DNA of 64,000 bases from an uncultured Gemmatimonadales bacterium (GCA_963812085.1 CAWETL010000003.1:849706-913705); one strand, 5' to 3'; positions 5,437 through 63,105 are shown, counted from the first letter of the stretch. Program-made: numbers and translations. Notes: generated from the sequence alone by a model not told the origin.

Positions 5437-7163
5437 TGGTCCTGCCGGAGACGGTGCGGGATTCCCGGCGCCTCACCGGCCCGAACCTGGTGTCCGACCG
5501 CCCGGCCGCGGTGCTCGAGGTGGACCTCCCGCCCGGCGCGGCGGACGCCGCCGTTGGACTCTGGCGCGAGGAGGCCCGGCGCGCGCTCGAGGCGCTCGGC
5601 TGGGGCGGCGAGTCGCTCATCGTCCGGCAGTTCCCGGGCGGCGCGAGCCTGGCCCTCACCGCGCCGATCGACGCCCTCTACGCGGCCACTGAAGTGAATG
5701 AGTGGGCGTGGACCGCCGCGACCCGGCGGCTCCACGGCGAGCCGGTGGAGGCCGGACCGGAGCTCGCGCGCCTTGCCCTCGCGATCGCGGCCGAACGCCG
5801 GCCCGCTCTCCTGGCCCTCCAGCGCGCGGCCGCAGCGCGGGGCGTCCGGTTCCTCTGGGATGACCAGTTCGTCTCGGTCGGCTCCGGAACAGGCGCCAGC
5901 ACCTGGCCGGTGGACGCGCTGCCCGCCCCCGACGCCGTGGACTGGTCACGGGTGCATGACATTCCCGTGGCGCTGGTGACGGGCAGCAACGGCAAGACGA
6001 CGGTCACCCGGCTCACGGCGGCGATCATCACGGCCAGCGGGCGCGTGGCCGGGCACACCTCCACCGACGGGATCAAGGTCGGCTCCGAGCTCCTCGAGGC
6101 GGGAGACTTCAGCGGGCCCGGCGGGGCGCGGCTCCTGCTGCGGGACCCGCGGGTCGAAATGGCCGTGCTCGAGACGGCCCGCGGCGGACTCCTCCGGCGG
6201 GGCCTGGCCGTGGAGCGCGTGGAGGCGGCAGTCGTCACCAACATCGCCGAGGATCATCTCGGCGAGTCGGGCGTCTATTCGCTGGCACATCTCGCCGCCG
6301 CCAAGCTGGTCGTGGCCCGCGCGTTGGACGCCACCCACCCCATTGTCCTCAACGCCGACGACCCCGCACTCGTGGCCGCGGCCGACGCCCTCACCTGCCC
6401 AGTCGCCTGGTTCTCGCTCGATGCCGACAGCCCCGTGCTCACGGCCGCGCGTGCGCGCGGGCAGCGCACCGCCTGCCTCGACGGGCGTCAGCTGGTGCTC
6501 GGGGCGGGAGTATCAGTGCGATCGGTCACCACGGTGGACCGGGTGCCGATCACGGTCGGTGGTGCGGCGCGCCACAACGTGGCGAACGCCCTCGCCGCTG
6601 CGCTCCTCGCCTCGGCGCTCGGCCTGCCCGACGACGCCATCGCGAACGGCCTCGCGGCGCTGACCAATACCCCCGCCGGCAATGTCGGGCGCCTCAACGC
6701 CTTCGAATTCGGCGGCGTCCGCGCCTTCGTGGACTTCGCGCACAACCCGCACGGCGTCACGGCGCTGATGGACATGGCGCGCGCGCTGCCGGCCACTCGA
6801 CGGCTGGTCGTGATCGGCCAGGCCGGCGACCGCGACGACCACGCGATCCGCGAGCTGGCCCGCACCGCCTGGTCGGGGCGGCCCGACATGGTGATCGTCA
6901 AGGAGATGCCCGCCTACCTTCGCGGCCGCCCCGAGGGCGAGGTCACCGGCATGCTTCGGGCCGAGCTTCGGCGGCTTGGAGCGCGGGAAGATCAGCTCGG
7001 CCTGGCCGTCGGCGAACTCGGCGCGGTCCGCCGGGCCCTGACCTGGGCCCGCGACGGAGACCTGCTGCTCCTCACCGTCCACGCCGACCGCGACAGCGTC
7101 CTTCGTTTTCTGCAGCGGCTCGGCGCCGAGGGATGGACCCCCGGCGCCCCGCTTCCTACATGA
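5436..7163 (+). CDS. CphA-like protein with N-domain plus Mur-ligase domain and no ATP-grasp domain (CphA' type)
   Basis: ATG at 5436 overlaps the cphA TGA (TGATG). It is the tail of the artefactual 1505-aa ORF 2646..7163. N-terminus ETVRDSRRLTGPNLVSDRPAAVLEVDL parallels the CphA N-terminus. Then VTGSNGKTTV, NIAEDHLG and DFAHNPHG Mur-ligase motifs. About 575 aa. Confidence 0.8.
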   Translation: MVLPETVRDSRRLTGPNLVSDRPAAVLEVDLPPGAADAAVGLWREEARRALEALGWGGESLIVRQFPGGASLALTAPIDALYAATEVNEWAWTAATRRLHGEPVEAGPELARLALAIAAERRPALLALQRAAAARGVRFLWDDQFVSVGSGTGASTWPVDALPAPDAVDWSRVHDIPVALVTGSNGKTTVTRLTAAIITASGRVAGHTSTDGIKVGSELLEAGDFSGPGGARLLLRDPRVEMAVLETARGGLLRRGLAVERVEAAVVTNIAEDHLGESGVYSLAHLAAAKLVVARALDATHPIVLNADDPALVAAADALTCPVAWFSLDADSPVLTAARARGQRTACLDGRQLVLGAGVSVRSVTTVDRVPITVGGAARHNVANALAAALLASALGLPDDAIANGLAALTNTPAGNVGRLNAFEFGGVRAFVDFAHNPHGVTALMDMARALPATRRLVVIGQAGDRDDHAIRELARTAWSGRPDMVIVKEMPAYLRGRPEGEVTGMLRAELRRLGAREDQLGLAVGELGAVRRALTWARDGDLLLLTVHADRDSVLRFLQRLGAEGWTPGAPLPT

Positions 7164-12950: not shown

Positions 12951-13008
12951 AGGATCGGCCGGCCAGCGCCGACTTGCCATCGTGGTTCCCTCCGCGGTAC
13001 AATTCGGA

Positions 13009-13344
13009 ATGCCTCGCCTCAAGCGGTCCGGCGTGATTCGGGTTGTTGCCCTCTTCCTGTTGCTCACGGGCGGGAGTCTGTCGACTCTCGAATTCGTGCT
13101 GCACAGTGGGGCGGGCCACGCCGAATCGAGTTACCACCTGGGCACGACCGGCTCGCGCAACACTCCGCACCACTGCCTCGGCACCGCCATGTCCGGGGCC
13201 GGAGTCACCCCGGTCGTGGATGCCCGGACGCTCCTCTCCTGCCCCGATGGCCTCGAAACCCCGGTCCGGTCCGAGGCTGCCCTGCTGGCATTCGCCCCAG
13301 CCGTCCTCCCTACCACGCGAGCTCCTCCGACGATTCCCGTTTGA
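13009..13344 (+). CDS. Hypothetical small membrane-anchored His-rich protein upstream of the efflux operon
   Basis: Internal ATG 13009: MPRLKRSGVIRVVALFLLLTGG, then HSGAGHAESSYHLG...TPHHC. No recognisable family; coding status uncertain. Confidence 0.3.
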   Translation: MPRLKRSGVIRVVALFLLLTGGSLSTLEFVLHSGAGHAESSYHLGTTGSRNTPHHCLGTAMSGAGVTPVVDARTLLSCPDGLETPVRSEAALLAFAPAVLPTTRAPPTIPV

Positions 13345-13398
13345 CCTGGTGACCGGCTGCCCTTCCGGGCGTCGGCTATTCCAATTCAAAGGGATCGT

Positions 13399-14760
13399 AT
13401 GCGACACCTTCTCATGGTGTGCGCGCTGGCATTGACAGCCGGCACCGCACATGCGCAGCAGGCCGACAAGCAGCCAGAGACGACCGCTGCCGACACGGCG
13501 GGACTGCGAATGCCCCCGGACTGTGCCCGGGACTCCCAGCCGCAGGACGTCGCCACCGCCGACTCGCTCTGTCTCAGCCGGCCGGAGGCGGTCGCTGCGG
13601 CGCTGCAGCGCAATCCGCAGCTCAAGGCCGTCGAGGAGCAGGTGGCGCAGGCCCGGGCCCGCAAGGTCCAGGGCACGGCGTTCCCTGACCCGCAGTTCGC
13701 GGCCGAGTGGGGCAACTCGACCCGACTGTTCGGCGGGGAGGCCGGGACCAAGACGGTGGCGGCCACGCTGACGATCCCCTTCTTCGACAAGTTCCGCCTC
13801 TGGCACGACATCGGGCGGGCGGACGTCCAGGCCAATCAGGCAAACCTCGAGCTCGTTCGTCAGCTCCTCGCGTCACAGACCTCGGAGACCTACGACTCGC
13901 TGCTGATGTCGATTCGGCATCGCCGGATCCTCGAGGATGCCAAGTCGATGGCCGACGAGTTCCTGGCCAAAACCGAGTCCCGGTTCCGGGCGGGGACCGT
14001 CCCGCGACTCGATGTCGTCCAGGCCCAGGTGGACGAGGCGAGCGCGCAGAACGACCTCATTGCGAGCGAATCCGGGGTGGCGAACGCCCGTGCCGCCCTC
14101 AATCGCCTCCTCGACCGGCCCCTCGGCGCCCCGATCTCGGCCTCCGATTCCCTGGCCGTCCCTCCCGACCTGCCGCCCCTCGACACGCTGCTCGGCGCCG
14201 CGGTGGGCGCGCGCCCCGACGTCACGGGCCTCAACCGCCAGCTGGAGGGCGCACGGGCCAACACCGCCCTGGTGCACGAGTTCTGGTTCCCCGACATCGC
14301 GATCGGCGTCGGCCACGACTATGCCGCCCCCGGCCCCGGCAATCTCTTCACCGCGGTCTACTTTCCGATTCCAATTTTCTACTGGAACCACGCCAAGGGC
14401 GAGATTGCCCAGTCGCGTCACGCCGAAGCCGAGCTCGAGGCCTCGCGGCAGGACCTGCTCGCCCAGGTCAACCAGGACGTCCGGGTGGCGTATGCGGCGG
14501 CCTCGACCTCGCTGCGGCAGGTGCAGTTCCAGCGCGATGTCCTGGTGCCGTCCGCGCGCGAGGCCTACCGAATCGCCATCGCCAGCTATGCGCTGGGGGG
14601 ATCCTCATCGCTCGAGGTGCTCGGCGCACGGCGCGCCCTCACCGACGCCGAAAGCCAATACACCGACGCACTCGCCGCTGCCGACATGTCGCGAGCCGAG
14701 CTGGAACGCGCCGTGGCCGTTCCCCTTTCGTCCTTCCAGGCCGGAGGTCCCGCCCGATGA
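13399..14760 (+). CDS. czcC: Outer-membrane efflux protein (TolC/CzcC family)
   Basis: Signal peptide MRHLLMVCALALTAGTAHAQQ. Two-repeat OEP pattern. Stop overlaps the next ATG (ATGA). Confidence 0.8.
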   Translation: MRHLLMVCALALTAGTAHAQQADKQPETTAADTAGLRMPPDCARDSQPQDVATADSLCLSRPEAVAAALQRNPQLKAVEEQVAQARARKVQGTAFPDPQFAAEWGNSTRLFGGEAGTKTVAATLTIPFFDKFRLWHDIGRADVQANQANLELVRQLLASQTSETYDSLLMSIRHRRILEDAKSMADEFLAKTESRFRAGTVPRLDVVQAQVDEASAQNDLIASESGVANARAALNRLLDRPLGAPISASDSLAVPPDLPPLDTLLGAAVGARPDVTGLNRQLEGARANTALVHEFWFPDIAIGVGHDYAAPGPGNLFTAVYFPIPIFYWNHAKGEIAQSRHAEAELEASRQDLLAQVNQDVRVAYAAASTSLRQVQFQRDVLVPSAREAYRIAIASYALGGSSSLEVLGARRALTDAESQYTDALAAADMSRAELERAVAVPLSSFQAGGPAR

Positions 14761-15899
14761 TCCGCTCCGATCTCCTCGCTGCTTCCCTCGCGGCCCTCCT
14801 CGCGCTGGGATGTTCCAGGAAGGTCTCCCCGGGTGACGCACCGGCGGCGGGCAACTCTCCCGGCCAGGTCGCGGTCGACTCCGTCCAGCGCCGCCGGTTC
14901 GTCCTGCAGCGAATCGACTCCTCCCGCTATACCCCGGCGATCGTGACGACCGGCACCGTCGCCTTCAGCGCGGATCGCTCGACGCAAGTGCTTGCCCCGA
15001 TTTCCGGTCCGGTTTCCCGCCTCCTGGTGCAGCCGGGCGCCCGGGTGCGCGCCGGCCAGGCGCTGGCCACCGTGGCCTCATCCGACTTCGCCGATGCCGT
15101 CGCGAACTTCAGCAAGGCCGAAGCGGTGTGGCGGAACGCGAAGAAGATCGCGAACCTGGACGAGCAACTCTACGCCAGCGACGGGATCGCTCGCCGCGAC
15201 GTGGACCAGGCCCGGACCGACCTCGATGGCGCCACCGCTGACCGGGACGCCGCCCTGGTCCAGCTCCGCGCCCTCGGCGCGGACGACGCCGCGGTCGCCC
15301 TGATCCGGAGCGGGAAGGCGGACAGCGTCCCGATCGAGGCGATCATCCGGGCACCGATCGCCGGCACGGTGGTGGAGAAGCTGATCACGCCCGGCCAATT
15401 GCTGGAGGCCGGCAGCACCCCCTGCTTCACCATCGCCGACCTCGCGACCATGTGGGTCATGGCCAATGTCTTTGAACAGGACATCCGGGAGGTCCACGCG
15501 GGCGAACGGGCCGCCATCGTCACCGATGCCTCCCCGGACACCCTGGGCGGGAGGGTGGACTACGTTGCCGCGCTGGTCGACCCCTCCACCAAGGCCACGG
15601 CCGTCCGCATCGTGGTGCCCAACCGGGATGGGCTCCTCAAGCGCGACATGCTGGTGCAGGTCACCATCGCCTCGGCCAGGCCGCACACCGGGCTTCTGGT
15701 GCCGGTGGCGGCCGTGCTTCGAGACGACGAGAACCTCCCGTACCTCTTCCTCGCCGCGAACGACAGCACCTTCGACCGGCGGCGCATCACCCTCGGGGGG
15801 CGGGTCGGAGGCCGGTACGTCGTGTCCGACGGCCTGACCGCGGGCGATCGCGTGGTGGTCGATGGCGCGGTCTTCCTGCAGACGATGGGGGCGCAATGA
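14757..15899 (+). CDS. czcB: RND efflux periplasmic adaptor (membrane fusion protein, CzcB-like)
   Basis: ATG 14757 in frame with ORF 13707..15899. MIRSDLLAASLAALLALGCS, then lipoyl/beta-barrel motifs (APISGPVSRLLVQPGARVRAGQALATV, IRAPIAGTVVEK). Confidence 0.8.
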   Translation: MIRSDLLAASLAALLALGCSRKVSPGDAPAAGNSPGQVAVDSVQRRRFVLQRIDSSRYTPAIVTTGTVAFSADRSTQVLAPISGPVSRLLVQPGARVRAGQALATVASSDFADAVANFSKAEAVWRNAKKIANLDEQLYASDGIARRDVDQARTDLDGATADRDAALVQLRALGADDAAVALIRSGKADSVPIEAIIRAPIAGTVVEKLITPGQLLEAGSTPCFTIADLATMWVMANVFEQDIREVHAGERAAIVTDASPDTLGGRVDYVAALVDPSTKATAVRIVVPNRDGLLKRDMLVQVTIASARPHTGLLVPVAAVLRDDENLPYLFLAANDSTFDRRRITLGGRVGGRYVVSDGLTAGDRVVVDGAVFLQTMGAQ

Positions 15900-18800
15900 C
15901 CGGTCCTGCCGACGCGCCCGCGGGTCCGACGGACCCCTCCGCGAGCCCGTCGATCATCCATCGCATCGTGTCGGCGGCGCTGGCCCAGCCTGTCCTGGTG
16001 CTCATCGTCGCCCTCGCGGCAACGGCGGTGGGCGTCTGGTCCTTCAGCCGGCTCCCGGTGGACGCGTACCCCGACTTGTCCCCCCCAATGGTTTCGCTGA
16101 TCTCCGAATGGCCCGGGCATGCGGCCGAGGAGGTCGAGCGGCTGGTCACCGTGCCCGTCGAACTGGCGATGAACGGCCTGCCCGCGGTCGTCTCGGTGCG
16201 GTCCATCTCGCTCTACGGCCTGTCCTCCGTCGACCTCACCTTCGCCGACGGCACCGATCCGTATTTCGCACGCCAACAGGTGTTCGAGCGACTCCCTGAC
16301 GCGGGCGTGCCGGACGGCGTCTCGCCGAGCGTCGCGCCGCTCGCCTCACCGTCGGGGCTGGTCTATCGCTACGTGCTCGAGAGTCCCGACCGGTCGCCGA
16401 TGGAACTCAAGACCCTGCAGGACTGGGTCATCGGCAAGGCCTATCGCGCTGTGCCCGGGGTGGCCGACCTCTCGGCCTTCGGGGGCCAGTCGATGGAGTA
16501 CCACGTGGTGCTCGACCCCACGAAGGTCGCGGGCGCAGGGCTGTCGGTGCCGGCCATCGCTGCCGCGCTGGGCGCCAACAACGGGAACGCGGGCGGCGGC
16601 TTCTACTCCGAGGGCGGGCAATTCTACTACGTCCGGGGGCTGGGACGGCTGAAGACGCCAGAGGACATCGGCCAGGTGGTCCTGGCGGTGAACAACGGCA
16701 CGCCGATCCTCGTGCGGGACGTCGCCCGCGTCGAGATCGGGGCCGCGCCCCGGCTGGGGCAATTCGGGTTCAACGACAACCCGGATGCCGTCGAGGGCGT
16801 GGTGATGATGCGGACGGGCGAGCAGGCCCAGACGGTGCTCAAGGGCGTGCAGGCGAAGACCGCTGAACTGAACCAGTCGGGGCTGCCCAAGGATGTCCAC
16901 ATCCGCCCCTTCTACGACCGGAGCGACCTGATCCACCTCACCACCCGGACGGTGGTGGACAACCTGCTGCGCGGGATCGTGCTGGTCATCATCGTCCTGA
17001 TGCTCTTCCTGCTCGACGTCCGCTCGGGATTGATCGTGGCGGTGACCATTCCGCTCGCGCTGCTCTTCGCGGCCATCTGCCTCGACCTGAGGCACATTCC
17101 GGCTAACCTGCTCTCGATCGGGGCGATCGACTTCGGCATCCTGGTGGACGGCGCCGTCGTGATGGTGGAGAACATCTACCGCGCGCTGGTGGCCCGGGAG
17201 GGCACCGAGTATTCCATCAGGGAGGTCATCGTTGCGGCGGCGGGCGAGGTGGACCGGCCGGTGGTGTACGCCATCGCCATCATCATCGCCGGGTTCCTCC
17301 CCATCTACGTCCTGTCCGGGCCCTCCGGCCGCCTGTTCCGGCCGATGGCCGACACCACCATCTTCGCCCTGGTCGGCGCGCTGGCGCTGACCCTGACGGT
17401 CGTGCCCGTCCTCTGCGCCTGGCTCCTGCGCGGGGGCGTCCGCGAGCGCCGCAACGTCGCCTTCGAGGCGATCCGCGACGCCTACACCCGGACCCTCGAC
17501 TGGTGCCTCCGCTATCCGCGGCGCACCACGGGCGCCGCCGTCGCCGCCTTCGTGGGTGCCCTGCTCCTGACCCGCTTCATCGGCGCCGAGTTCATGCCCC
17601 ACCTCGACGAGGGCGCGCTCTGGGTGCGGGCCACGATGCCGCCGACGATCTCGCTCGAGGAGTCCAGCCGGATCGTGCCGGAAATCCGCCAGCTCCTCCG
17701 GACATTCCCGCAGGTGACCGAGGTCGCCTCGGAGCATGGCCGGCCCGACGACGGCACCGATGCGACCGGCTTCTTCAACGCCGAGTTCTACGTCGGGCTC
17801 AAGCCCTACGGGGAGTGGGAGGGGCCCATTCGGACCAAGCCCGAGCTGATCGAGGCCATCGGCCAGAAGCTGGCTCGGTTCCCCGGCATCACCTTCAACT
17901 ACACCCAGCCCGCCGAGGATGCGGTCGACGAGGCCGAAACCGGCCTCAAGAGTTCGCTCGCGGTCAAGATCTTCGGCCCTGACCTGCAGGTGCTCGAGGC
18001 GAAGGCGCGCGCCATCGCCCGGGTGATGGGCGAGGTGCGGGGCATCGACCGGATCCTGGTGGTGGAGGAACTGGGGCAGCCCAGCCTGACGGTCGACATC
18101 GACCGGGCCAAGATCGCCAAGTACGGCATCAACGTCGAGGACGTCAACGGCCTCATCGAGGCGGCGGTCGGGGGCACGGCCGCAACCCAGGTGGTCCAGG
18201 GGGAGGAGCTCTTTGACCTGGTGGTCCGCCTCGACCCGAAGTACCGGGAAACGCCGGAGGAGATCGGCTCGATCCTGGTGGCGGCGCCCAACGGCCAGCA
18301 GATACCCCTGCATGAACTGGCGACGATCGAGGTCGCCAGCGGCGCGTCGTTCATCTACCGGGAAGGCAATTCGCGCTATATCGGGGTGCAGTATGCCGTC
18401 GAAGGCCGGGACCTGGCAGGCACGGTCCAGGAGGCGCGTTCGCGCGTCGCCGCGGTGGTGTCGCTCCCGCAGGGCTATCGGGTGGAGTGGGGAGGAGAGT
18501 ACCAGGAATACACGGCGTCCCGAAGCCAGCTGGCGGTGGTCCTGCCGCTCACCGTCGCGCTGATCTTCCTCCTGCTCTTCGCGCTCTACCGGAACGTCAG
18601 CTTTCCGCTCATCACCGTCGTCGGGGTGGCGCTGTCCGCTCCCGTCGGGGGCCTCCTGACGCTGGCCCTGACGGGCACCCCGTTCTCGGTGTCCTCCGGC
18701 ATCGGATTCCTGGCGCTCTTCGGCGTATCGGTGCAGACCGCGGTGGTCTACATCTCCTACGCCAATGAGCTGCGCCTCGGCGGGCGCTCCATCGCGGACG

Positions 18801-19030
18801 CCGCCCGGGAGGCGGCGATCTTCCGGCTCCGGCCCATCATGATGACCGCGCTGGTGGCGGCGCTCGGCCTGCTGCCCGCCGCACTCTCTACGGGAGTCGG
18901 CTCGGACTCCCAGCGCCCCTTCGCGCTGGTCATCGTGGGCGGACTGATTTCACGGCTGTTCATCAGCATCCTGCTCATGCCGGTGCTCTATGTCGGCGTG
19001 GCGAGGGAGGGCGACCGGCTGGAGGTCTGA
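15896..19030 (+). CDS. czcA: Heavy-metal efflux RND pump (CzcA/HME family)
   Basis: 1044 aa with 12-TM RND layout. TM4 motif AIDFGILVDGAVVMVEN (about 17118-17175) matches the divalent-cation HME signature DFG-DGA-VEN. Confidence 0.9.
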   Translation: MTGPADAPAGPTDPSASPSIIHRIVSAALAQPVLVLIVALAATAVGVWSFSRLPVDAYPDLSPPMVSLISEWPGHAAEEVERLVTVPVELAMNGLPAVVSVRSISLYGLSSVDLTFADGTDPYFARQQVFERLPDAGVPDGVSPSVAPLASPSGLVYRYVLESPDRSPMELKTLQDWVIGKAYRAVPGVADLSAFGGQSMEYHVVLDPTKVAGAGLSVPAIAAALGANNGNAGGGFYSEGGQFYYVRGLGRLKTPEDIGQVVLAVNNGTPILVRDVARVEIGAAPRLGQFGFNDNPDAVEGVVMMRTGEQAQTVLKGVQAKTAELNQSGLPKDVHIRPFYDRSDLIHLTTRTVVDNLLRGIVLVIIVLMLFLLDVRSGLIVAVTIPLALLFAAICLDLRHIPANLLSIGAIDFGILVDGAVVMVENIYRALVAREGTEYSIREVIVAAAGEVDRPVVYAIAIIIAGFLPIYVLSGPSGRLFRPMADTTIFALVGALALTLTVVPVLCAWLLRGGVRERRNVAFEAIRDAYTRTLDWCLRYPRRTTGAAVAAFVGALLLTRFIGAEFMPHLDEGALWVRATMPPTISLEESSRIVPEIRQLLRTFPQVTEVASEHGRPDDGTDATGFFNAEFYVGLKPYGEWEGPIRTKPELIEAIGQKLARFPGITFNYTQPAEDAVDEAETGLKSSLAVKIFGPDLQVLEAKARAIARVMGEVRGIDRILVVEELGQPSLTVDIDRAKIAKYGINVEDVNGLIEAAVGGTAATQVVQGEELFDLVVRLDPKYRETPEEIGSILVAAPNGQQIPLHELATIEVASGASFIYREGNSRYIGVQYAVEGRDLAGTVQEARSRVAAVVSLPQGYRVEWGGEYQEYTASRSQLAVVLPLTVALIFLLLFALYRNVSFPLITVVGVALSAPVGGLLTLALTGTPFSVSSGIGFLALFGVSVQTAVVYISYANELRLGGRSIADAAREAAIFRLRPIMMTALVAALGLLPAALSTGVGSDSQRPFALVIVGGLISRLFISILLMPVLYVGVAREGDRLEV

Positions 19031-19111
19031 ACGCAGGACTTGCTGACCTGGCGGCCCCAAGCGCAGCGAGGGCAAGGAACCGGAATAGGCAACCGATCCG
19101 GGACGGGTACG

Positions 19112-19222
19112 CGGCGTGGCGGGCGGACCGCAGTGCGGAATCTGGAGCGGTCGGAAGCGTCTCGAGACGCCGCGGGGCGGCTGACCGGCCACAAGACGGA
19201 TTCGGTCTATGCACGGTACAAC
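19112..19222 (+). pseudogene. C-terminal remnant of a phage-type tyrosine integrase
   Basis: RRGGRTAVRNLERSEASRDAAGRLTGHKTDSVYARYN resembles the box II end (HDLRRTAVRNL...GHK...Y.RYN) of tyrosine recombinases. No upstream body. Abuts an attC arm fragment at 19219-19241. Confidence 0.55.
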
Positions 19223-19253
19223 GACTGGCGCATCAGCTGCGGCCCCCGGGTGA

Positions 19254-19599
19254 GAGCTCGGCATCACCCACCAGCGCACCACGCCCGGCAGCCCCCAGGA
19301 GAACGGCGCCCACGAACGCCTGCACAAAACCCTCAAGGCACGCGCGACCCGGCCCCCTGCCGCGAACTTCAACACCCAACCGCGGGTCTGCAATGCCCTT
19401 CAGGCGACCTACATCGAACACCTTCCGGCTCCACTCCAGCCAACACTTCCTGAGCCAGGCGCTCAACAACGAACACATCGGGCTGGAGGAAGTCCGAGAC
19501 GGCCTCCGGAACCTCCTCCACTACGAGACGCTCCTCGGACGCGTTGACGAACACACCCACACCATCGCCGGGGCTCCCTCCCTCGGAGGAAAGTGTTAA
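19254..19599 (+). mobile_element. Degraded C-terminal fragment of an rve (DDE integrase-core) IS transposase, IS481-like
   Basis: ELGITHQRTTPGSPQENGAHERLHKTLKARATRPPAAN in one frame, then FRR...IGLEEVRDGLRNLLHYETLLGRVDE in another. Internal deletion and frameshift. No N-terminal part and no inverted repeats identified. Confidence 0.55.
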
Positions 19600-19619
19600 C
19601 CATGCCCCCAGGCATTCTG

Positions 19620-20111
19620 TCAGCTATGTCCCTGGTTGCTCAGTGGAGGCCAAAAGCCAGCATGGACAGCCCGCGCCTCATCGCTCAACATTGGCCCGGA
19701 GACAGTGACCGGTTCGGTGGCCCGTGCGATGAGCTCGCGGCACGGTACCAGGAAATCGGGTCCTGTCACCGCAGCCAGTTCCTCGGCCGAGAGGGCATAG
19801 ACCAGTGAGCGGATGCCCGCCCAGTACAGCTTGCCAACGCACATGGCGCATGGCTCACAGCTGGTGTAGAGCGTGGCTCGCCGGATTTGGTCTGGCGAGA
19901 GCCGCCGGATGGCACTCGCAATGAGGTTGGTCTCCGCATGGCTGGTTGGATCCCGCTCGGAATGAACGGCATTCATCGCGGTAAGCACGACCTCTCCGTC
20001 GAGAACGAGAAGCGCGCCAAAGGGATGGTTGCCCTCGGCCCGGGCTTGGCTGGCAAGCGCGATCGCCTGCCTGACGAATTGCTCGGGCGGAGTCTGCGGC
20101 CCCAAGTTCAT
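19620..20111 (-). CDS. CMP/dCMP-type zinc deaminase (nucleoside/guanine deaminase-like), cassette-borne
   Basis: HAE and PCAMC zinc motifs (DPTSHAETNLI...CEPCAMCVGKLYWAGI). Start taken at internal ATG 20111 (MNLGPQTPPEQF). Confidence 0.75.
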   Translation of the reverse strand: MNLGPQTPPEQFVRQAIALASQARAEGNHPFGALLVLDGEVVLTAMNAVHSERDPTSHAETNLIASAIRRLSPDQIRRATLYTSCEPCAMCVGKLYWAGIRSLVYALSAEELAAVTGPDFLVPCRELIARATEPVTVSGPMLSDEARAVHAGFWPPLSNQGHS

Positions 20112-20140
20112 CTTACCCCTTAGGTGGATGCAATCCAGCG

Positions 20141-20198
20141 ACACAACGATTGAGTTCAGCCGCCGCCGAAGGCCGGCGGCTGCAGCGAAAGGTTAGAC
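20141..20198 (-). repeat. Short (58 bp) attC-like site
   Basis: On the cassette strand: GTCTAAC box (20198..20192), stem cagccgccg/cggcggctg, distal GTTGTGT (one mismatch to GTTRRRY). About 22 nt after the SDR stop. Confidence 0.55.
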
Positions 20199-20220
20199 CT
20201 CGTATTGTCCGAGCCCACGA

Positions 20221-21003
20221 CTAGCAAATCGAGTAGCCACCATCAACTGGCAGGGTGACGCCAGTGATGAAATCGGCAGCGGCAGATGCCAGGAAGACGG
20301 CGGCACCGGCTACTTCGTCAGACTCACCCCATCGAGCCGCGGGCGTACGCGCCAAGATCATCTTGTTGAATTCGGCATAGTCCGCGTTCTCCCGCGCGAT
20401 CGCGGTCATCTCGGTGGCGATCCAGCCCGGTGCAATCGCGTTGACTTGAATGTGGTGCGGCGCCAGTTCAACAGCCATCGCCTTGGTCAGTTGCACGATG
20501 GCCCCTTTGGCTGCGCCATAGGACGGGAACATTCCCGCGCCAAAGTAGGAATACATGCTCGCGAGATTGATGATCTTTCCCCGTTTGCGCTTGACCATGG
20601 AGGCCGCCGCATATTTGGAAAGGAGAAATGTCGCATCGAGATGCGTGGCCAGCGTCGTGTCCCAGACTTCGGGCGACTCGTTGAGAATGCCGCCAGTCAC
20701 GGTCGCGACTCCCGCGTTGTTCACGAGAATATCGATCCCGCCCAACGCTGCTTCGACCGCGTCAATGGCACCGGACAGCGTTTCACGCGCTGTCACGTCG
20801 AGGTGTAATGCCATCGCCGGAACGCCGAGGGCCTTCAACTCGGCAAGCACCTGACTGTTCTTTTCTTCACTCCGAGCGAGCACGGCAATTGCCGCGCCGG
20901 CGCGGGCCATGCCAAGCGCAATCGAGCGCCCGATGCCGCGGTTTCCACCGGTGATGACGGCAACACGGCCGCCGAGTTCAAAAGGGGATGAGGCGCTGGC
21001 CAT
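20221..21003 (-). CDS. Short-chain dehydrogenase/reductase (classical SDR), cassette-borne
   Basis: TGGNRGIG, NNAG and YGAAK motifs. 260 aa. Confidence 0.85.
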   Translation of the reverse strand: MASASSPFELGGRVAVITGGNRGIGRSIALGMARAGAAIAVLARSEEKNSQVLAELKALGVPAMALHLDVTARETLSGAIDAVEAALGGIDILVNNAGVATVTGGILNESPEVWDTTLATHLDATFLLSKYAAASMVKRKRGKIINLASMYSYFGAGMFPSYGAAKGAIVQLTKAMAVELAPHHIQVNAIAPGWIATEMTAIARENADYAEFNKMILARTPAARWGESDEVAGAAVFLASAAADFITGVTLPVDGGYSIC

Positions 21004-21025
21004 TCTCTGCTCCGGTTGTTGCGAG

Positions 21026-21068
21026 GCCTAACGAATGGCGCATCAGCTGCGAGGGCGCTGGTTAGGCC
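21026..21068 (-). repeat. Truncated attC (deletion derivative of the 131-bp type)
   Basis: ggcctaacgaatggcgcatcagctgcgagggcgctggttaggcc. Both boxes and one arm are kept; the sequence between two gcgctg microhomologies of the long form is missing. Confidence 0.6.
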
Positions 21069-21076
21069 GGTGGCCC

Positions 21077-21856
21077 CTAGGGCTCAACCCCGAATCGGAA
21101 GAGCACCCAATAGCAGCCCACACCGAGGCTGACGATGGCGCCGACACAGAGCGCGAGGACTGGGGCGAGGCGGCGGTCGAGCTCAGGCACCTTCGCGCGA
21201 GCGTAGCCACGTAGACAAACCGCATAGGCAGCGAAAGCCAAGAGAATGCCGGCAACAAGGTCGGCGACGTAATGCTGCTTGGTGAACAGCGTGGAAACGG
21301 CGACTAGCGTAGCGCACGATACGGCGATGAACCCAAGCGTACGATGCACCCGCCAGCAGGCGAGCCCTGAGACGAAGGAGTGCGCGACGTGGAGCGAAGG
21401 AAAGCAGTTGTAGGGAGGGTCGGCGCTGTAAAGGAATCGTAGCCCCCAGACGGCGAAGCCCTTCCCCGTCACCGCGTCCGGCCGCGAGGCCACGGTCGGA
21501 TAAAGGATGAAGCAGATGTACGCCACAATCCACACCGTTAGGTACGCCCACACGGTGCGGCGAATCAGTTCTTCCTGCTGGATCACGAACACCGGCAGCA
21601 CGATAAGGAAGGCGTAGAGCGCTCCATAGACCAGCGCCCACGTTGGTACGAGGGGCAGGAGCCGGTCCAACGCCAGCGCCGGCGCGTGCGCCACACCGGC
21701 ACGGGCTCGGCCCGCTATGACGAGGTAGATGGGGACCAGCGAAACGAGCAGGACCATTGGAATCGTCACCCGGTACGGTCGGTTAAGCGCCTGCCCGACG
21801 GTGCTCCAGGTGATGCGGATGCCATCGGGAGTACTGGTCAACGGATCGCGTCTCAC
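21077..21856 (-). CDS. PAP2-superfamily membrane phosphatase/phosphotransferase, cassette-borne
   Basis: Multi-TM protein with FPSLHVAHS and TKQHYVADLVAG (PAP2 C2/C3-like motifs). Stop is 9 nt from the attC box. Confidence 0.7.
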   Translation of the reverse strand: MRRDPLTSTPDGIRITWSTVGQALNRPYRVTIPMVLLVSLVPIYLVIAGRARAGVAHAPALALDRLLPLVPTWALVYGALYAFLIVLPVFVIQQEELIRRTVWAYLTVWIVAYICFILYPTVASRPDAVTGKGFAVWGLRFLYSADPPYNCFPSLHVAHSFVSGLACWRVHRTLGFIAVSCATLVAVSTLFTKQHYVADLVAGILLAFAAYAVCLRGYARAKVPELDRRLAPVLALCVGAIVSLGVGCYWVLFRFGVEP

Positions 21857-21881
21857 AGGGCCTCACGATGGTCCGAAGCGC

Positions 21882-22012
21882 GGCCTAACGAAACGCGCAT
21901 CAGCTGCGAGGGCGCTGCGCGGCAGCCGCCGCGCCGTCCTCGGTTAGAACCTACGGCGCGGCGGCTGCCAGCAGCCAGCGCGCCCTCGTCAGCTGCATGC
22001 GCTGGTTAGGCC
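21882..22012 (-). repeat. attC site, 131-bp type
   Basis: GGCCTAAC...GGTTAGGCC long imperfect hairpin. The TAA of ORF 22006..22530 lies inside the box. Confidence 0.75.
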
Positions 22013-22530
22013 GCACCATCCCACCGGTCTCGTCGAATCATTGGGACTAGGTCTCGGATCGCGGCGACCGAGGTGAGAGCCCCAGCCGCGAAGATCCATG
22101 TGAACAAGCCAACCGCTCCACCAATGCCTCCGGCGCCTATCGCGAGCATGCCCCACTCGCCGATGACCCGAGGCAAAGGGAGTTGGCCCAGCACAAATCC
22201 GATTGCCCCAGCGGCCACGGCCCACGGCAGTGCAGAAGCCATTGCGTCAGGGCCGCGCGAGTTTGCAAGCGGCTTGGAGCGCAGCCAATGAGCGCCAGTA
22301 ACAAGGAGAGCGGCGGAGACAGGCAGGGGCCATCCGAGGAGTCCGCGAACCAACAACGCAATTGAGAGAACTGCACCAAACGCCAATAGGACGCAAAGCA
22401 AGATGAGCGCCCTTTTGGACCAGCCGCTTCCTCCGTCTCCACCGCGATTCCAGAACGCTGGCGGCTGGGGTGGCCCGCCGCTCGCCGTCGCTTGCTTCCG
22501 CACTGGCGGCGGCAATGGTTGGGACCGCAT
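22006..22530 (-). CDS. Hypothetical 4-TM membrane protein, cassette-borne
   Basis: Hydrophobic segments ALILLCVLLAFGAVLSIALLV, VSAALLVTGAHWL, AVAAGAIGFVLG, GMLAIGAGGIGGAVGLFTWIFAAGAL. Start uncertain. Confidence 0.5.
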   Translation of the reverse strand: MRSQPLPPPVRKQATASGGPPQPPAFWNRGGDGGSGWSKRALILLCVLLAFGAVLSIALLVRGLLGWPLPVSAALLVTGAHWLRSKPLANSRGPDAMASALPWAVAAGAIGFVLGQLPLPRVIGEWGMLAIGAGGIGGAVGLFTWIFAAGALTSVAAIRDLVPMIRRDRWDGAA

Positions 22531-22619
22531 TCCTGCAATGGCTGGCCCTTCACACGGAGTGCGCAGGATCGTCGAGGACGTGGCGGCATCAGCGCGCCGA
22601 GTCAGCGGACGCTGGTGTC

Positions 22620-22750
22620 GGCCTAACGACTGCGCATCAGCTGCGAGGGCGCTGCGCGGCAGCCGCCGCGCCGTCCTCGGTTAGCAACCTACGGTGCGGC
22701 GGCTGCCAGCAGCCAGCGCGCCCTCGTCAGCTGCATGCGCTGGTTAGGCC
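22620..22750 (-). repeat. attC site, 131-bp type
   Basis: Near-identical to 21882-22012 and 23257-23387. Confidence 0.75.
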
Positions 22751-23256
22751 GCAGCCATCCAGAGCTGACCGACCGTCGGCGTGCCCAGTCGCCAGATGGC
22801 GAGCCGCTGACGCAGTGCGACTTGCAGCAATCCAGCGATCCAGGCAGCCGCAATGTCGACCGCACAGCGACGTCAGCCCCGATCAGCAGGAGCCCGCCGA
22901 TGGAGTCGGCGACGCCGTACTCGCCGAGCCGTCAGCGACGCGAACTCCGTCCGCGATCGGCTGACGCGGACCAGCTCGAAGCACGCTGATCGGCCGTCGG
23001 ACGACGATCGCCGGCAGTGCAGCCGCTCGACACGCGAGCTGATACCGCTGAGCGGTCAACGGCGCAGTGCGGCGCATCGCCGGCCTTCGAAGGTCGACGC
23101 GGCATCCGCGAGCGTCATCGGCGAGAGCGCTGGACGCCTCGCAGGCGGCCAGCGGATGGATCGCATGGCTCGGTGCCGACGGCGACTCGAGTGAGCTGAG
23201 CGTCGGGCCTGAGAGGCAGCGCGATCCATGGCGTCGCATGCGATCCTGATGGTCGC
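22751..23256 (-). pseudogene. Cassette without an intact ORF (fragments of a small membrane protein in two frames)
   Basis: Minus-strand fragments EYGVADSIGGLLLIGADVAV and AVDIAAAWIAGLLQVALRQRLAIWRLGTPTVGQLWMAAA, the latter ending at the TAA of the attC box. They are separated by a frame change and stops. Confidence 0.35.
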
Positions 23257-23387
23257 GGCCTAACGACTGGCGCATCAGCTGCGAGGGCGCTGCGCGGCAG
23301 CCGCCGCGCCGTCCTCGGTTAGAACCTACGGTGCGGCGGCTGCCAGCAGCCAGCGCGCCCTCGTCAGCTGCATGCGCTGGTTAGGCC
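23257..23387 (-). repeat. attC site, 131-bp type
   Basis: GGCCTAACGACTGGCGCATCAGCTGCGAGGGCGC...GCGCGCCCTCGTCAGCTGCATGCGCTGGTTAGGCC. Confidence 0.75.
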
Positions 23388-23394
23388 GCAGCGC

Positions 23395-23693
23395 TCACCG
23401 ACGCGCCTGCCACCGGCGCGGATCTCGGCGGCCGTGCATGCGGCAATGCACCGACACGCTCCAGGTGACGACGCAATAGATCAAGCAGGGTCAGCCGCCG
23501 GAGTTGGGCACGGACGAATGTCGTCTACGGTCGTGGAGGAATTGCGACAGCGAGCCCGATCGATCGCCGCGAGGACAGTCCGGACCGAGCGGATGACTCG
23601 TGGCCAAGCCGGCTGCTGCGCGTCCTCGAACCACCGATAGGCGCTCGGCGCGAACTCGGCGAGTCTCGGCCGAAGCAACAAGCGCGGCGTCAT
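23395..23693 (-). pseudogene. ParE/RelE-like toxin, frame-disrupted
   Basis: ATG 23693: MTPRLLLRPRLAEFAPSAYRWFEDAQQP...DDIRPC in one frame. C-terminal LIYCVVTWSVSVHCRMHGRRDPRRWQARR in another frame, ending 7 nt from the attC. Confidence 0.4.
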
Positions 23694-23704
23694 GCGCCGC
23701 GCTG

Positions 23705-23910
23705 CTATGCGATCTCGTCGAGAGCATCCTGCCAGGGCTGGCCAGGGGCTCGCATGACTTGGCCAGTGCGGCTCGGCGAGCGCTGAGTCCGCCGCATGGT
23801 CCGAGGCCATCTCGATGCTCGCAGCTCGAGGCATCGCCGAGGAGTTGCTCGGCGAGCTCGATGCGCTCAGCCGGCGTGAGGTGGGAGAAGTCGAAGATGG
23901 GAGCAGCCAT
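23705..23910 (-). pseudogene. Putative addiction-module antitoxin (TIGR02574-like), frame-disrupted
   Basis: ATG 23910: MAAPIFDFSHLTPAERIELAEQLLGD. A plausible C-terminus GQPWQDALDEIA-stop lies in a different frame, 11 nt upstream of the toxin ATG. Confidence 0.35.
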
Positions 23911-24323
23911 AGGCAATGTGGCAAGGAGCTTAGGTTCACGCAAGATCGGGAGGGATGGCGCTGCGGCCTAACGACCATTGTACGGCGAGCGATATCCGCA
24001 TGTGGAGGCAAAGGCTGTGCAGTTTCGCAGCCTAATCCAATGGTATAACTCCTGGGCGAATCCAGAGAGGCTGAACTCGCCGCAGTCGAAGGCGGGGTGC
24101 GAGGAGGCTCGCTCCGTGGAGCCTGCTTGCCGGAGCCGGGGACACATCCTGGCCCCGGATGCCACCTACGCAGATCTCTGGCAATGCGTCGCGAGGCGGC
24201 TCACATGATTTCATGCCCCGGCTGCCCACCACCGAACCCGCAGAGCATCTGGACAATTTCCACGAAGAAGCCCCTGTCTTCCAAACTTCGAAATAGGGGC
24301 TAAATCGTTCTGGCACCGCAAGA

Positions 24324-24406
24324 TGCCCGAGGCGAGAGTCGAACTCGCACGGGGTTGCCCCCGACGGATTTTGAGTCCGTTGCGTCTGCCATTCCGCCAC
24401 TCGGGC
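24324..24406 (-). tRNA. tRNA-Leu (anticodon CAA)
   Basis: Minus strand GCCCGAGTGGCGGAATGGCAGACGCAACGGACTCAAAATCCGTCGGGGGCAACCCCGTGCGAGTTCGACTCTCGCCTCGGGCA. 7-bp acceptor stem, anticodon loop CU-CAA-AA, long variable arm, TTCGA T-loop. No encoded CCA. Confidence 0.9.
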
Positions 24407-24459
24407 GCCGCGGGAGGAAGATGGCCGCGCGGCGGAAGGGACGCAAGAACGGGGCGCTG

Positions 24460-24969
24460 CTAGGGCTGCTGCATCGACGCCGGGCCCCGCATCATGTTCT
24501 GCTGGCGCTGGCGGCGGATCTCCTCGATCCGCGCCATCAACCGCTCCCGCATCACCTGGAACTGCGCCCGCTGCACCGCCGAGAGGTACTTCGCCATCTC
24601 GCGATTCTCGTCCACAAAGGTCTGCGCGTACGTCACCTTGAGCGCCAGCAGCTGGTCCGTGACCTTGGCCACGCTGTCCGAATTGGCGGCCACGCCGGGC
24701 CGGAGCTGTCCCTGGAGCGCCTGCTTGAGCGCCCGTTCGTTGCGCTCCATCGCGCGCCGCTGCTGCGCGTAAGTCTGGAAGGTGGCCCGGAGCTGCGCCG
24801 CCTGCTGGTCGGTGAGGCCCAGCGTCTGCTGCACCTGCGCCCCGAACCGGGTCTCGATCTGCTGGCGCATCTGCTCGGCCGCAGGCGATGCGCTGGTGTC
24901 GTCCTGCGCCCACGCCGCCGGCGCCACGGTCACCGCGAGAAGTACCACCAGCCACACGAGTCGTCGCAT
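24460..24969 (-). CDS. Periplasmic LTXXQ-motif protein (CpxP/Spy/ZraP-like)
   Basis: Signal peptide MRRLVWLVVLLAVTVAPAAWAQ. LTDQQAAQL motif, helical Q/R-rich sequence. Start overlaps the anti-sigma stop. Confidence 0.6.
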   Translation of the reverse strand: MRRLVWLVVLLAVTVAPAAWAQDDTSASPAAEQMRQQIETRFGAQVQQTLGLTDQQAAQLRATFQTYAQQRRAMERNERALKQALQGQLRPGVAANSDSVAKVTDQLLALKVTYAQTFVDENREMAKYLSAVQRAQFQVMRERLMARIEEIRRQRQQNMMRGPASMQQP

Positions 24970-62895: not shown

Positions 62896-62962
62896 CTGGA
62901 CAAACTTAACCGCCGCTCCGCGGACGGGCAAGTAATTATGAGGAAAGAGTTTAGGGGCATTC

Positions 62963-63105
62963 TGTCATTGCGAGGCCACGCAGTGGCCGAAGCAATCTCG
63001 CCCCAGATTGCAGAGTCGGCCTCCTCGGGTTGGTCCTCCGGGCCTGCAGTTCGCGCCCTGTCCTGGGATTGCTTCGTCGGCCCTGTGGGCCTCCTCGCAA
63101 TGACA
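62963..63105. repeat. Palindromic intergenic repeat, family A, copy 3 (expanded, about 1.5 units)
   Basis: tgtcattgcgaggccacgcagtggccgaagcaatc...gattgcttcgtcggccctgtgggcctcctcgcaatgaca, with an internal partial duplication. Confidence 0.75.

Follow-up and report, generated by a model that had tools for sequence, protein, structure and literature searches.

A 64-kb stretch of the genome of an uncultured Gemmatimonadales bacterium (hereafter, the window) carries a run of long palindromes between minus-strand open reading frames (ORFs), which raises the question of whether the palindromes are recombination sites of an integron and how such an array would have come to stand without an integrase gene. 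A preliminary description of the sequence had proposed an integrase-less array of integron cassettes read on the minus strand. We conclude that the region 19221-24038 is very probably (probability about 0.87) the remnant of a chromosomal integron of Gemmatimonadales type, the array being a CALIN, an already known kind of element.

The palindromes and their family

Three 131-nt imperfect palindromes lie on the plus strand at 21882..22012, 22620..22750 and 23257..23387, exactly as first described. Together with a 43-nt copy (21026..21068, plus strand) and a lone GCCTAAC box, they all fall within 21026-23972, and none occurs elsewhere in the 64 kb. The 21-mer GCGCATCAGCTGCGAGGGCGC occurs four times in the window versus 0.01 expected, and GCCTAAC nine times versus 1.98 expected, with 9/9 occurrences in that same interval. 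The three full-length copies are 97-100% alike and structurally intact, and both they and the 43-nt copy are bounded by the GCCTAAC...GTTAGGC boxes previously noted, which fit RYYYAAC/GTTRRRY. A search of Rfam with the palindromes returned no matching family. We scored them with a covariance model (CM) built here, which is specific to a family of ~128-nt repeats and is not a general attC model. The full sites scored 120-131 bits on the plus strand versus 47-52 on the minus strand: 128 bits (47 on the minus strand) for the site of cassette 1 at 23257..23387, 120.5 for that of cassette 2 at 22620..22750, and 130.9 for that of cassette 3 at 21882..22012. The 43-nt site, which belongs to cassette 4, scored 25.7 bits (E = 1.4e-4) and is indeed a derivative of the family, from which an internal segment between two GCGCTG repeats has been lost, fusing the R'-L' arm directly to TGGTTAGGC. 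Because its L'' arm and extrahelical bases are gone, this collapsed site is presumably dead.

Folded as single-stranded DNA, each 131-nt copy reached -57 to -63.5 kcal/mol (z = -7 to -9.9). Folding of both strands, which had been recommended as a check, placed two one-base bulges on the 3' arm of the plus strand, that is, the 5' arm of the minus strand, where they read G and A; this is the ORF-proximal arm, on which extra bases had been noticed by eye. The two unpaired bases fall at positions 16 and 23, as is canonical, with a 6-bp stem between them, and lie on the arm that adjoins the ORF stops; this matches the layout described in PMC5027507, where the bases are usually G and T. Among 110 family copies, the base at position 16 is C in 110/110, where canonical sites usually have G, and that at position 23 varies (A41/T34/C29/G5) with no conserved T, while the AAC and GTT triplets of the boxes are kept in 108-110 of the 110. 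The plus strand folds more stably in 93% of the copies (mean -1.86 kcal/mol), as expected for the bottom strand, and contains more G:T pairs than its complement (1.82 versus 0.57); the corresponding published figures for bottom and top strands are 1.24 and 0.39 (PMC5027507). Modeling thus predicts the plus strand to be the bottom (recombined) strand of these sites. Since the family is so uniform, covariation in its alignment is essentially nil (one compensatory pair), and support for the structure therefore comes from energetics and geometry.

A genome scan detected the ~128-nt repeat in 110 distinct copies, which in Gemmatimonadales MAGs form arrays with all sites on one strand; the largest, with 49 sites, spans 41.5 kb of CAVVKJ010000008.1, and CAWEMJ010000007.1 holds 26. 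By tblastn, an IntI homolog was found at the array end in seven loci, continuous in five and frameshifted in two (L049 and L050). The protein of L025, the one scored, reached 421.6 bits on TIGR02249 'integron integrase' (cutoff 265). In all seven, intI lies on the cassette strand, with its stop codon ~55-75 nt from the first R box. The longest ORF was on the expected (top) strand in 107/122 inter-site intervals (median interval, 600 nt); in these 107, ORFs covered a median of 89%. Most ORF stops in the family intervals lay -7 to +45 nt relative to R'', with a tail of longer distances. Relatives contain several arrays per genome, some with and some without intI. The 131-nt palindromes are integron attC sites, because of the intI-linked arrays of their family, the bulge positions, the strand stability, the ORF orientation, and the sharing of cassette 1 with other arrays (see below); with the canonical boxes and the strand asymmetry, these observations also bear out the original proposal of an integrase-less array read on the minus strand. 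The window thus contains, within 2.4 kb and on a single strand, three full attC sites plus the collapsed one, and tblastn detected no IntI in the 64 kb.

Cassettes and the distal end

Cassette 1 (23388..23965, minus strand) is a degraded toxin-antitoxin cassette composed of an antitoxin relic (23910->23693) and a ParE-type toxin relic (23693->23398), both frameshifted and on the minus strand. Its counterparts in two other arrays, L061 and L069, are intact (antitoxin, TIGR02574; toxin, ParE_toxin), whereas the tblastn HSPs in the window are broken across frames and include an in-frame stop. The DNA identity to both is 76-83%, and the homology stops at GGCCTAACGA, the AAC box with its AA|C crossover, beyond which the window runs on into attI and L061 into another attC. 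For cassettes 2-6, no counterpart was found in different arrays. Cassette 2 (22751..23256, minus strand) showed no intact ORF and no recognizable family in ORF and family searches and is presumed to be a pseudogene or a non-coding cassette. Cassette 3 has a minus-strand ORF of 174 aa (22006..22530) encoding an Ala/Gly-rich protein with hydrophobic stretches that, judged by eye, look membrane-spanning; no family could be assigned to it and no relatives were found. The ORF of cassette 4 (21077..21856, minus strand; 259 aa) encodes a PAP2-superfamily membrane protein (Pfam PAP2_3, E = 6.3e-17).

Beyond the collapsed site, a minus-strand ORF of 260 aa (20221..21003, cassette 5) encodes a short-chain dehydrogenase/reductase (SDR; Pfam adh_short_C2, E = 2.7e-59), a 99.4% identical copy of which is present in Logan contig L099. 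It is followed by a 58-nt hairpin (20141..20198, plus strand) of a different, short type, ending in ACACAAC...GTTAGAC. The hairpin exists and has attC-like traits, namely a plus-strand GAAG loop and a bulged C at position 16, counted from the 3' end, but it is not the shortened version of the 131-nt repeat that it had been taken for, as it falls outside the family (11.6 bits, E = 0.55). Over 29 nt it matches, at 93%, a hairpin inside the array region of intI-bearing L017, and it is probably the attC of cassette 5. Cassette 6 comprises a minus-strand ORF of 163 aa (19620..20111) for a cytidine/deoxycytidylate-type (TadA-like) deaminase (Pfam dCMP_cyt_deam_1, E = 8.1e-23; also NCBIfam); the gene call in L099 is also 163 aa. 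Its stop lies 18 nt from a GTTAACC (19595..19601, plus strand), which is by position a weak candidate for an R'' relic, the remainder of the attC being missing.

As had been remarked, the stops lie inside or within about 25 nt of the boxes: the TAA of the cassette 3 ORF is that of GCCTAAC, inside R'', and the distances are 8 nt for the toxin relic, 9 nt for PAP2, 22 nt for SDR, and the 18 nt given above for the deaminase. The rise in A/T at third codon positions also held, with GC3 at 0.65-0.77 in the cassette ORFs versus 0.86-0.95 in the flanking genes, a foreign composition that we count in favor of the integron reading.

The last attC of the array is broken into by the relic of an rve-type IS transposase (19254..19599, plus strand), a frameshifted and 5'-truncated C-terminal third that covers positions 231-276 and 327-377 of the 380 of profile phrog_8463 (transposase, E = 1.7e-9). 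On its far side, an orphan R'-L' arm of a family attC (19221..19245, plus strand), recognized by sequence match to array loci, marks the distal end; AACGACTGGCGCATCAGCTGCG (19220-19241) has an exact 22-nt match in seven array loci, and the switch to unrelated DNA at 19221 falls precisely on the AA|C crossover point. Thus, four of the six cassettes originally proposed are bounded by family attC sites, whereas cassettes 5 and 6, for which the evidence is a non-family hairpin and a truncated site, are probable. Because of the pseudogenes, the collapsed attC, and the IS-truncated attC, decay of the array is under way.

The proximal end and the origin of the array

No IntI homolog was detected in the 64-kb window by tblastn, in agreement with the first inspection, and no IntI-like translation was found in 23900-24500. 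The same inspection had recognized no attI; comparison with relatives revealed an attI-type junction and an intI stop relic at 23966-24038. An unpaired R box, GCCTAAC (23966..23972, plus strand), forms the attI/cassette 1 junction with its AA|C crossover, which is also where cassette 1 ceases to match L061 and L069. The minus-strand 13-mer CGCAGCCTAATCC (24026..24038) corresponds to the last codon and stop of intI (CTA on the plus strand), where intI homology ends. It occurs once in the window and, among 99 loci, only at the intI 3' ends of L017, L025, L044, and L061 and in L014, a second intI-less array. Between box and stop lies an attI-like relic (GACCATTGTACGG..., 23973..24025, minus strand) that is equal in length to the attI regions of intI-bearing relatives and has the ATTG.AC motif in common with them, so that the junction GCCTAACG..ATTG.AC and the exact 13-mer are kept at the expected distance; outside these two elements, the relic matches the relatives weakly. 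A sigma70-like TCCACA-18-TACAAT inside it (24006->23977, minus strand) was not above chance. The locus is not a complete integron, since intI is absent and a 13-nt relic including the stop codon is left.

Comparison of loci places the array in an 11.4-kb insertion (12951-24322) rather than in the conserved core chromosome. The insertion adjoins the 3' end of tRNA-Leu(CAA) (24324..24406, minus strand). In L103, the tRNA-Leu is followed by 11 bp and then by an OmpA-family gene equivalent to that ending at 12950 in the window, the 11.4 kb being missing; L100, L101, and L105 have other DNA in its place. The comparison with relatives that had been suggested thus finds the insertion holding the array to be variable, at a tRNA 3' end, as in an island. 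A search for direct repeats of the tRNA 3' end (14 nt or longer, up to one mismatch) found none. For an integrase-like C-terminal relic considered at 19100-19220, searches of Pfam, PHROGs, PDB, and proteins gave no confirmation, leaving the island with no confirmed integrase of its own.

In integrons, the folded bottom strand of attC is bound by IntI, which cleaves the 5'-AAC-3' of R' between A and C; recombination between two attC sites releases cassettes, which are then integrated at attI. By this established biology, the bottom strand here would be the plus strand, and the three intact attC sites, with no intI beside them, would be usable only by an IntI encoded elsewhere in the genome; otherwise, the array is a fossil. 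An intact ancestor, if organized as its relatives are, would have had intI transcribed toward attI, ~55-75 nt upstream of the first cassette, and dozens of same-strand cassettes, each closing with a ~128-nt attC hairpin. Deletion of intI left behind its last codon and stop, the attI-like spacer, and the first R box. The surviving cassettes with family attC sites are the degraded ParE/antitoxin, the non-coding, the 174-aa Ala/Gly-rich hydrophobic, and the PAP2 cassettes, followed by two probable ones (SDR and deaminase), with the array end cut by the IS relic.

Could the palindromes be REP/BIME- or MITE-like dispersed repeats, or transcription terminators, with no tie to an integron? In its favor, these GC-rich hairpins stand in intergenic DNA at the 3' ends of genes and have no Rfam match, but we give this reading almost no credence: the repeats are not scattered independently of ORF 3' ends, the pattern that the preliminary description had named as speaking against its proposal. 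Every copy in the 64 kb lies at one locus, and in relatives ORF-linked, same-strand arrays adjoin integron integrase genes, which contradicts dispersed repeats; the RYYYAAC/GTTRRRY boxes, the canonical bulge geometry, and the cassette junctions at AAC also argue against it. Alternatively, the locus may never have held an integron platform, the cassettes having been placed at a secondary (non-attI) site by an IntI acting in trans. CALINs are known to arise in this way (PMC4889954; PMC8618304), and the exact AA|C junction with unrelated DNA at 19221 would suit it. However, such an insertion would not carry along an attI junction and the intI-stop 13-mer, which are retained at the proximal end with the same spacing as in intI-bearing relatives, and we regard it as improbable. 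Because both are retained, we take the array to be a once-complete integron from which intI was deleted.

Two further readings, each of which we consider unlikely but worth keeping in mind, concern the extent and the present state of this remnant. The array may comprise four cassettes, the SDR and deaminase genes (19620-21003) being a two-gene cassette or island DNA and the 58-nt hairpin being terminator-like; this would accord with the noise-level score of the hairpin in the family CM, the deviation of its R' box ACACAAC from RYYYAAC, and the lack of a complete attC after the deaminase gene. Against this, both genes lie on the same strand as the other cassettes and are similarly low in GC3 (0.70-0.72). 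The hairpin itself ends in GTTAGAC, carries a GAA-containing loop on the strand predicted to be the bottom one, shows the bulged C, and has a similar counterpart in L017; in addition, the orphan family attC arm lies beyond both genes. As for its state, continued service in trans by an IntI encoded elsewhere in the genome, with the three intact attC sites still donating cassettes from a satellite CALIN, draws on the intact structure and near identity of these sites, on the several arrays per genome in relatives, with and without intI, on another array that begins ~4 kb past DNA homologous to the right end of the window in CAVOOB010000003.1, and on the possibility of trans mobilization of CALIN cassettes noted by Cury et al. 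(PMC4889954). Yet the two cassettes nearest attI are either pseudogenes or non-coding, two attC sites are damaged (one collapsed, one truncated), and neither the window nor the neighboring array of CAVOOB010000003.1 has a detectable intI.

Comparison with known systems

The 11.4-kb insertion resembles tRNA-linked genomic islands in abutting the 3' end of tRNA-Leu(CAA) and differs from them in the direct repeat and integrase discussed above. In the intI-bearing relatives, the transcription of intI toward attI (7/7) recalls the atypical integrons of the Treponema denticola type (PMC3607928), which belong to a different phylum; the likeness is one of intI orientation. The sites, at ~128-131 nt and highly uniform, are similar to the ~130-nt VCRs of the Vibrio cholerae superintegron. 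Like sedentary chromosomal integrons of that type, the family forms arrays of tens of cassettes (here in relatives), includes a toxin-antitoxin cassette, has mostly unknown functions, and places its extrahelical bases at positions 16 and 23 with 6-bp spacing. In contrast to those integrons, there are two extrahelical bases rather than three, with an invariant C instead of G at position 16 and no conserved T at position 23, the host is a high-GC member of the Gemmatimonadales, and the copy in the window is short and without intI.

The closest description is that of CALINs, which are defined as two or more same-strand attC sites separated by less than 4 kb, with no intI nearby, and which, as here, hold few cassettes (3-6) of unknown or non-resistance functions (PMC4889954). 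Cury et al. were able to document the intI-loss route for only 15/279 CALINs, since their approach depended on a recognizable intI pseudogene (PMC4889954). In the present array the origin is readable, as the attI relic and the intI stop codon point to the 'loss of intI' route.

Palindromic repeats and the attC family of Gemmatimonadales

The three 131-nt imperfect palindromes noted in the preliminary description were found at 21882-22012, 22620-22750, and 23257-23387, each with GCCTAAC...GTTAGGC ends. A 21-mer common to the repeats, GCGCATCAGCTGCGAGGGCGC, occurred four times against 0.01 expected, and GCCTAAC occurred nine times in the window against 1.98 expected, with all nine located within 21026-23972. 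When each 131-nt copy was folded as single-stranded DNA, the folding energy was -57 to -63.5 kcal/mol (z = -7 to -9.9), and two single-base bulges per copy appeared in the + strand's 3' arm, next to which the minus-strand ORFs stop. Counted from the + strand 3' end, the bulges lie at positions 16 and 23 with a 6-bp stem (CAGCTG) between them, and they correspond to an extrahelical C16 (21996, 22734, and 23371, + strand) and an extrahelical T23 (21989, 22727, and 23364, + strand) in the three full sites.

Two shorter sites had also been proposed. The 43-nt derivative at 21026-21068 proved to be a family copy with an internal deletion, in which the R'-L' arm is fused to TGGTTAGGC; the deletion lies between two 6-nt direct repeats GCGCTG, one in each hairpin arm. 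This collapsed site is an example of a decay route for long attC palindromes. The "58-bp version" at 20141-20198 is a genuine site, but it is of another sequence type than the 131-nt family. A family-specific covariance model, trained on 40 diverse family copies and searched over the 64 kb, gave the three full sites + strand scores of 120-131 bits and minus-strand scores of 47-52 bits; the score was 25.7 bits for the collapsed site (E = 1.4e-4) and 11.6 bits for the 58-nt site (E = 0.55). Beyond the three full sites and the collapsed one, nothing rose over noise in the whole 64 kb. An Rfam scan of the window gave a tRNA as the sole match. The GC content falls from approximately 0.70 to 0.60-0.65 across the array region, and the previously noted rise in A/T at third codon positions was borne out by GC3 values of 0.65-0.77 in the four intact cassette ORFs versus 0.86-0.95 in adjacent genes.

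A scan for a 19-nt repeat core with one genome per species returned 98 stretches, and all multi-copy stretches came from Gemmatimonadales/Gemmatimonadota MAGs with a spacing of 0.6-0.9 kb. With an nhmmer profile built from the window's three copies, 111 full-length matches (110 distinct, 123-133 nt) and many fragments were found; CAVVKJ010000008.1 carried 49 same-strand sites across 41.5 kb, and CAWEMJ010000007.1 carried 26 sites across 18.6 kb. In 107 of 122 intervals between neighbouring family sites (median 600 nt), the longest ORF was on the top strand. These ORFs covered a median of 89% of the interval, and their stops were mostly within -7 to +45 nt of the R'' box; the rest trail off to greater distances. 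The family arrays in relatives have a 342-aa tyrosine recombinase gene at one end. By tblastn with this recombinase (IntI), seven loci were found, five with a continuous gene and two with a frameshifted one (L049 and L050), and the protein of L025, a locus on CAVVKJ010000008.1, matched NCBIfam TIGR02249 'integron integrase' at 421.6 bits (cutoff 265). The recombinase at array ends and its TIGR02249 match identify the 128-131-nt repeats as the attC family of Gemmatimonadales integrons. Gemmatimonadota is already among the integron-carrying phyla in a review (PMC8618304). In the 49-site array, the attI-adjacent first cassette (L025 1628-2176, minus strand) encodes a Redoxin/AhpC-TSA thioredoxin-like protein. 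The family is a large and highly uniform attC set in Gemmatimonadales, with 110 distinct copies; its arrays reach 49 sites, and intI is co-oriented.

Imperfect palindromes of this kind could also be read as REP or MITE elements, or as plain terminators. Both readings were rejected because the repeats are clustered at one locus and linked to intI in relatives, and we retain the attC assignment. Read 5' to 3', the bottom strand of a canonical attC begins with R' (5'-RYYYAAC-3') and ends with R'' (5'-GTTRRRY-3'). In the arm facing AAC, it has extrahelical bases at position 16, usually G, and at position 23/24, where T is conserved, with a 6-bp stem separating them, and this strand is more stable and richer in G:T pairs than the top strand (PMC5027507). 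Among the 110 family copies, the + strand was more stable in 93% (mean difference, -1.86 kcal/mol) and contained 1.82 G:T pairs versus 0.57 on the other strand. Together with the bulge positions, these two biases make the + strand the predicted bottom strand, with cassettes read on the minus strand; this agrees with the ORF direction and with the orientation first suggested from the bulged arm. The extrahelical bases were thus placed as expected, at positions 16 and 23 with a 6-bp stem between them, but their identity departs from the usual G/T. Whereas canonical sites usually have G at position 16, all 110 family copies have C, and in place of the conserved T, position 23 is variable (A41, T34, C29, G5). 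RNAalifold on 40 diverse copies gave one compensatory pair; because the pairs almost never vary, covariation is uninformative either way. Judged by primary sequence and predicted fold, the window sites show each structural attC feature examined, except the usual extrahelical-base identity.

All mechanistic statements here draw on the sequence and on established integron biology. Each attC would be bound by IntI as a folded + strand, with the two bulged bases setting strand choice, and IntI would cleave the AAC of R' between A and C; cassettes would be excised via attC x attC recombination and then inserted at attI. The invariant C16 is a natural test case for the weight of base identity in strand choice by IntI.

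Cassettes and the distal end of the array

Cassette 1 (23388-23965), like all six on the minus strand, carries a degraded toxin-antitoxin pair, in which both toxin and antitoxin are split across frames and the antitoxin has an in-frame stop. Its homologs in the arrays of two relatives (L061 and L069) are intact and encode a TIGR02574 antitoxin and a ParE_toxin protein. The DNA identity to these cassettes is 76-83% and the homology stops at GGCCTAACGA, past which L061 runs into a further attC and the window runs into different sequence. Occurrence of one module in differing contexts with AA|C joints is the signature of a mobile cassette. Cassette 2 (22751-23256) has neither an intact ORF nor a family match. 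Cassette 3 (22006-22530) encodes a 174-aa Ala/Gly-rich hydrophobic protein of no family, whose stop is, as had been pointed out, the TAA inside GCCTAAC; a metagenome search found no relatives of this protein. Cassettes 4 (21077-21856), 5 (20221-21003), and 6 (19620-20111) encode a PAP2_3 protein, an SDR, and a TadA-like deaminase, respectively. Among the fetched arrays, no protein or DNA homologs of cassettes 2-6 were found except in a near-identical Logan contig (L099; SRR29784860, 1742 nt). This contig, from an independent sequencing run, is 99.4% identical to 19330-21039; it contains the SDR, the 58-nt site, the deaminase, and the start of an IS relic, and its ends fall at the collapsed attC and within the IS relic.

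Past the deaminase stop, the sole attC trace is a possible R'' relic, GTTAACC (19595-19601, + strand). Between the deaminase cassette and an orphan attC arm lies an rve-type IS transposase relic (19254-19599, + strand), a frameshifted, 5'-truncated C-terminal third (phrog_8463, E = 1.7e-9). The orphan, an R'-L' arm of a family attC (19221-19245, + strand), contains AACGACTGGCGCATCAGCTGCG, 22 nt that recur without mismatch at seven array loci. From this arrangement, the last attC was evidently struck by an IS and thereafter partly deleted. The arm is joined to 19100-19220 by ...TACAA|CGACTGG..., that is, at the AA|C crossover point, a position that would fit an attC x secondary-site event but does not prove it. 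The segment 19100-19220 (+ strand) reads RRGGRTAVRNLERSEASRDAAGRLTGHKTDSVYARYN, and its translation over 19100-19225 includes ...RTAVRNLERSEASRDAAGRLTGHKTDSVYARYN. We take this translation to resemble the C-terminus of phage-type tyrosine integrases and regard it as a lead; searches of this relic against Pfam, PHROGs, PDB (phmmer), and a protein database were all empty.

The insertion beside tRNA-Leu(CAA)

Relatives gathered via the Spy/CpxP-like neighbour gene share with the window, from 34.5 kb down to 24323, the order TetR - ECF sigma - anti-sigma - Spy - tRNA-Leu(CAA) at 80-88% DNA identity. In one of them (L103), the tRNA is followed by 11 bp and then by an OmpA-family gene matching the window up to 12950. 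The window therefore has 11.4 kb of inserted DNA (12951-24322) next to the tRNA-Leu(CAA) 3' end, including an efflux operon and the decayed integron. The same tRNA site is followed in L100 by 0.57 kb containing a DUF4440 gene, in L105 by 5.3 kb, and in L101 by a MacB/FtsX gene; such differing DNA, and none in L103, makes this site a variable hotspot. The operon (13399-19030, + strand) consists of genes for an OEP (13399-14760, GC3 0.86), a CusB/HlyD-type membrane-fusion protein (~14760-15899), and an RND pump (15896-19030, GC3 0.92), and the GC3 of OEP and RND, measured in frame, is host-like, unlike that of the cassettes.

The insertion was searched for a direct repeat of the tRNA-Leu 3' end, and none was found. 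In the intI-bearing relatives no tRNA lies beside intI, and therefore the window locus is not the ancestral position of those integrons. A combined reading, in which Gemmatimonadales integrons of this type use a variant attC recognition code (invariant C16, no conserved T23, and intI toward attI) and the window's copy travelled in a tRNA-Leu-targeting island with a CusCBA-type metal-efflux operon, seems to us unlikely; if true, it would describe a mobile integron outside Proteobacteria. In another relative, CAVOOB010000003.1 632001-648000 (L036/L020) contains DNA 81% identical to 61033-64000 of the window, and an attC array starts there approximately 4 kb beyond the matching part. By analogy, a second array may lie just outside the right end of the window in the source genome. 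An exact look-up of the protein encoded by a right-end gene gave no record.

The attI relic and loss of intI

In all seven intI-bearing loci, intI is co-oriented with the cassettes, and ~55-75 nt separate its stop from the first R box. The attI junction of these loci reads GCCTAAC|GT(G/C)(A/T)ATT(C/G)GAC...CGCAGCCTAATCCGGAAAGAC, where CTA is the intI stop. Transcription of intI toward attI is an atypical layout known from Treponema (PMC3607928), and Treponema-type integrons have it in common with the seven Gemmatimonadales loci. The preliminary description had recognised neither intI nor attI in the window. The absence of intI was upheld, as tblastn with IntI gave no match in the window and a loose threshold around 23900-24500 gave nothing credible, but an attI-type junction with an intI stop relic is present at 23966-24038 (GCCTAAC|GACCATTGTACGG...TTTCGCAGCCTAATCC|aatgg; junction, spacer, and 13-mer). 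This segment contains a partnerless R box, a spacer that has the length seen in relatives and carries the ATTG.AC motif, and the exact 13-mer CGCAGCCTAATCC. This 13-mer occurs once in the window; in the 99 fetched loci it marks four intI stop codons and is otherwise found in L014 alone. The latter, an intI-less array, retains ~25 nt of the intI 3' end and the attI junction (2330-2415), and L036 keeps the attI junction GCCTAACGTGAATTCGAC without intI (~6900-6930). A clean loss of intI that spares attI thus seems to have occurred more than once in this lineage. From these sequence relics, we conclude that the locus once had a complete integron, whose intI was then removed by a deletion reaching to the last codon. 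A metagenome scan for the window-specific intI-deletion junction (23-mer) gave no match. The attI relic also contains a sigma70-like site on the minus strand (24006->23977, TCCACA-18-TACAAT). Its -10 hexamer precedes the first R box by 4 nt, a useful place for a cassette promoter; one such site was found in 5.6 kb versus 0.7 expected, which is not above chance.

With intI undetected in the 64 kb, the array fits the definition of a CALIN, as had been proposed, and not that of a complete integron. Its in-cis machinery is broken: intI is missing, one attC is collapsed, and one is truncated. The three intact attC sites could still serve an IntI whose gene lies elsewhere. The current understanding of integrons is unchanged by these findings. 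The intI-deletion scar, the co-oriented intI, the invariant extrahelical C, and the tRNA-linked variable location might be noteworthy for specialists.

Loss of intI was proposed as an origin of CALINs by Cury et al. and documented for 15 of 279 CALINs, a count that depends on their requirement for a recognisable intI pseudogene (PMC4889954). The present locus differs from those CALINs in that the intI-loss route is legible from a stop-codon relic without a recognisable pseudogene. Such a relic would escape HMM-based searches for intI pseudogenes, and loss of intI may thus be more frequent among CALINs than has been counted. This locus is a clean, dissectable case of CALIN birth, in which intI is gone to its stop codon and attI and the cassettes are left.
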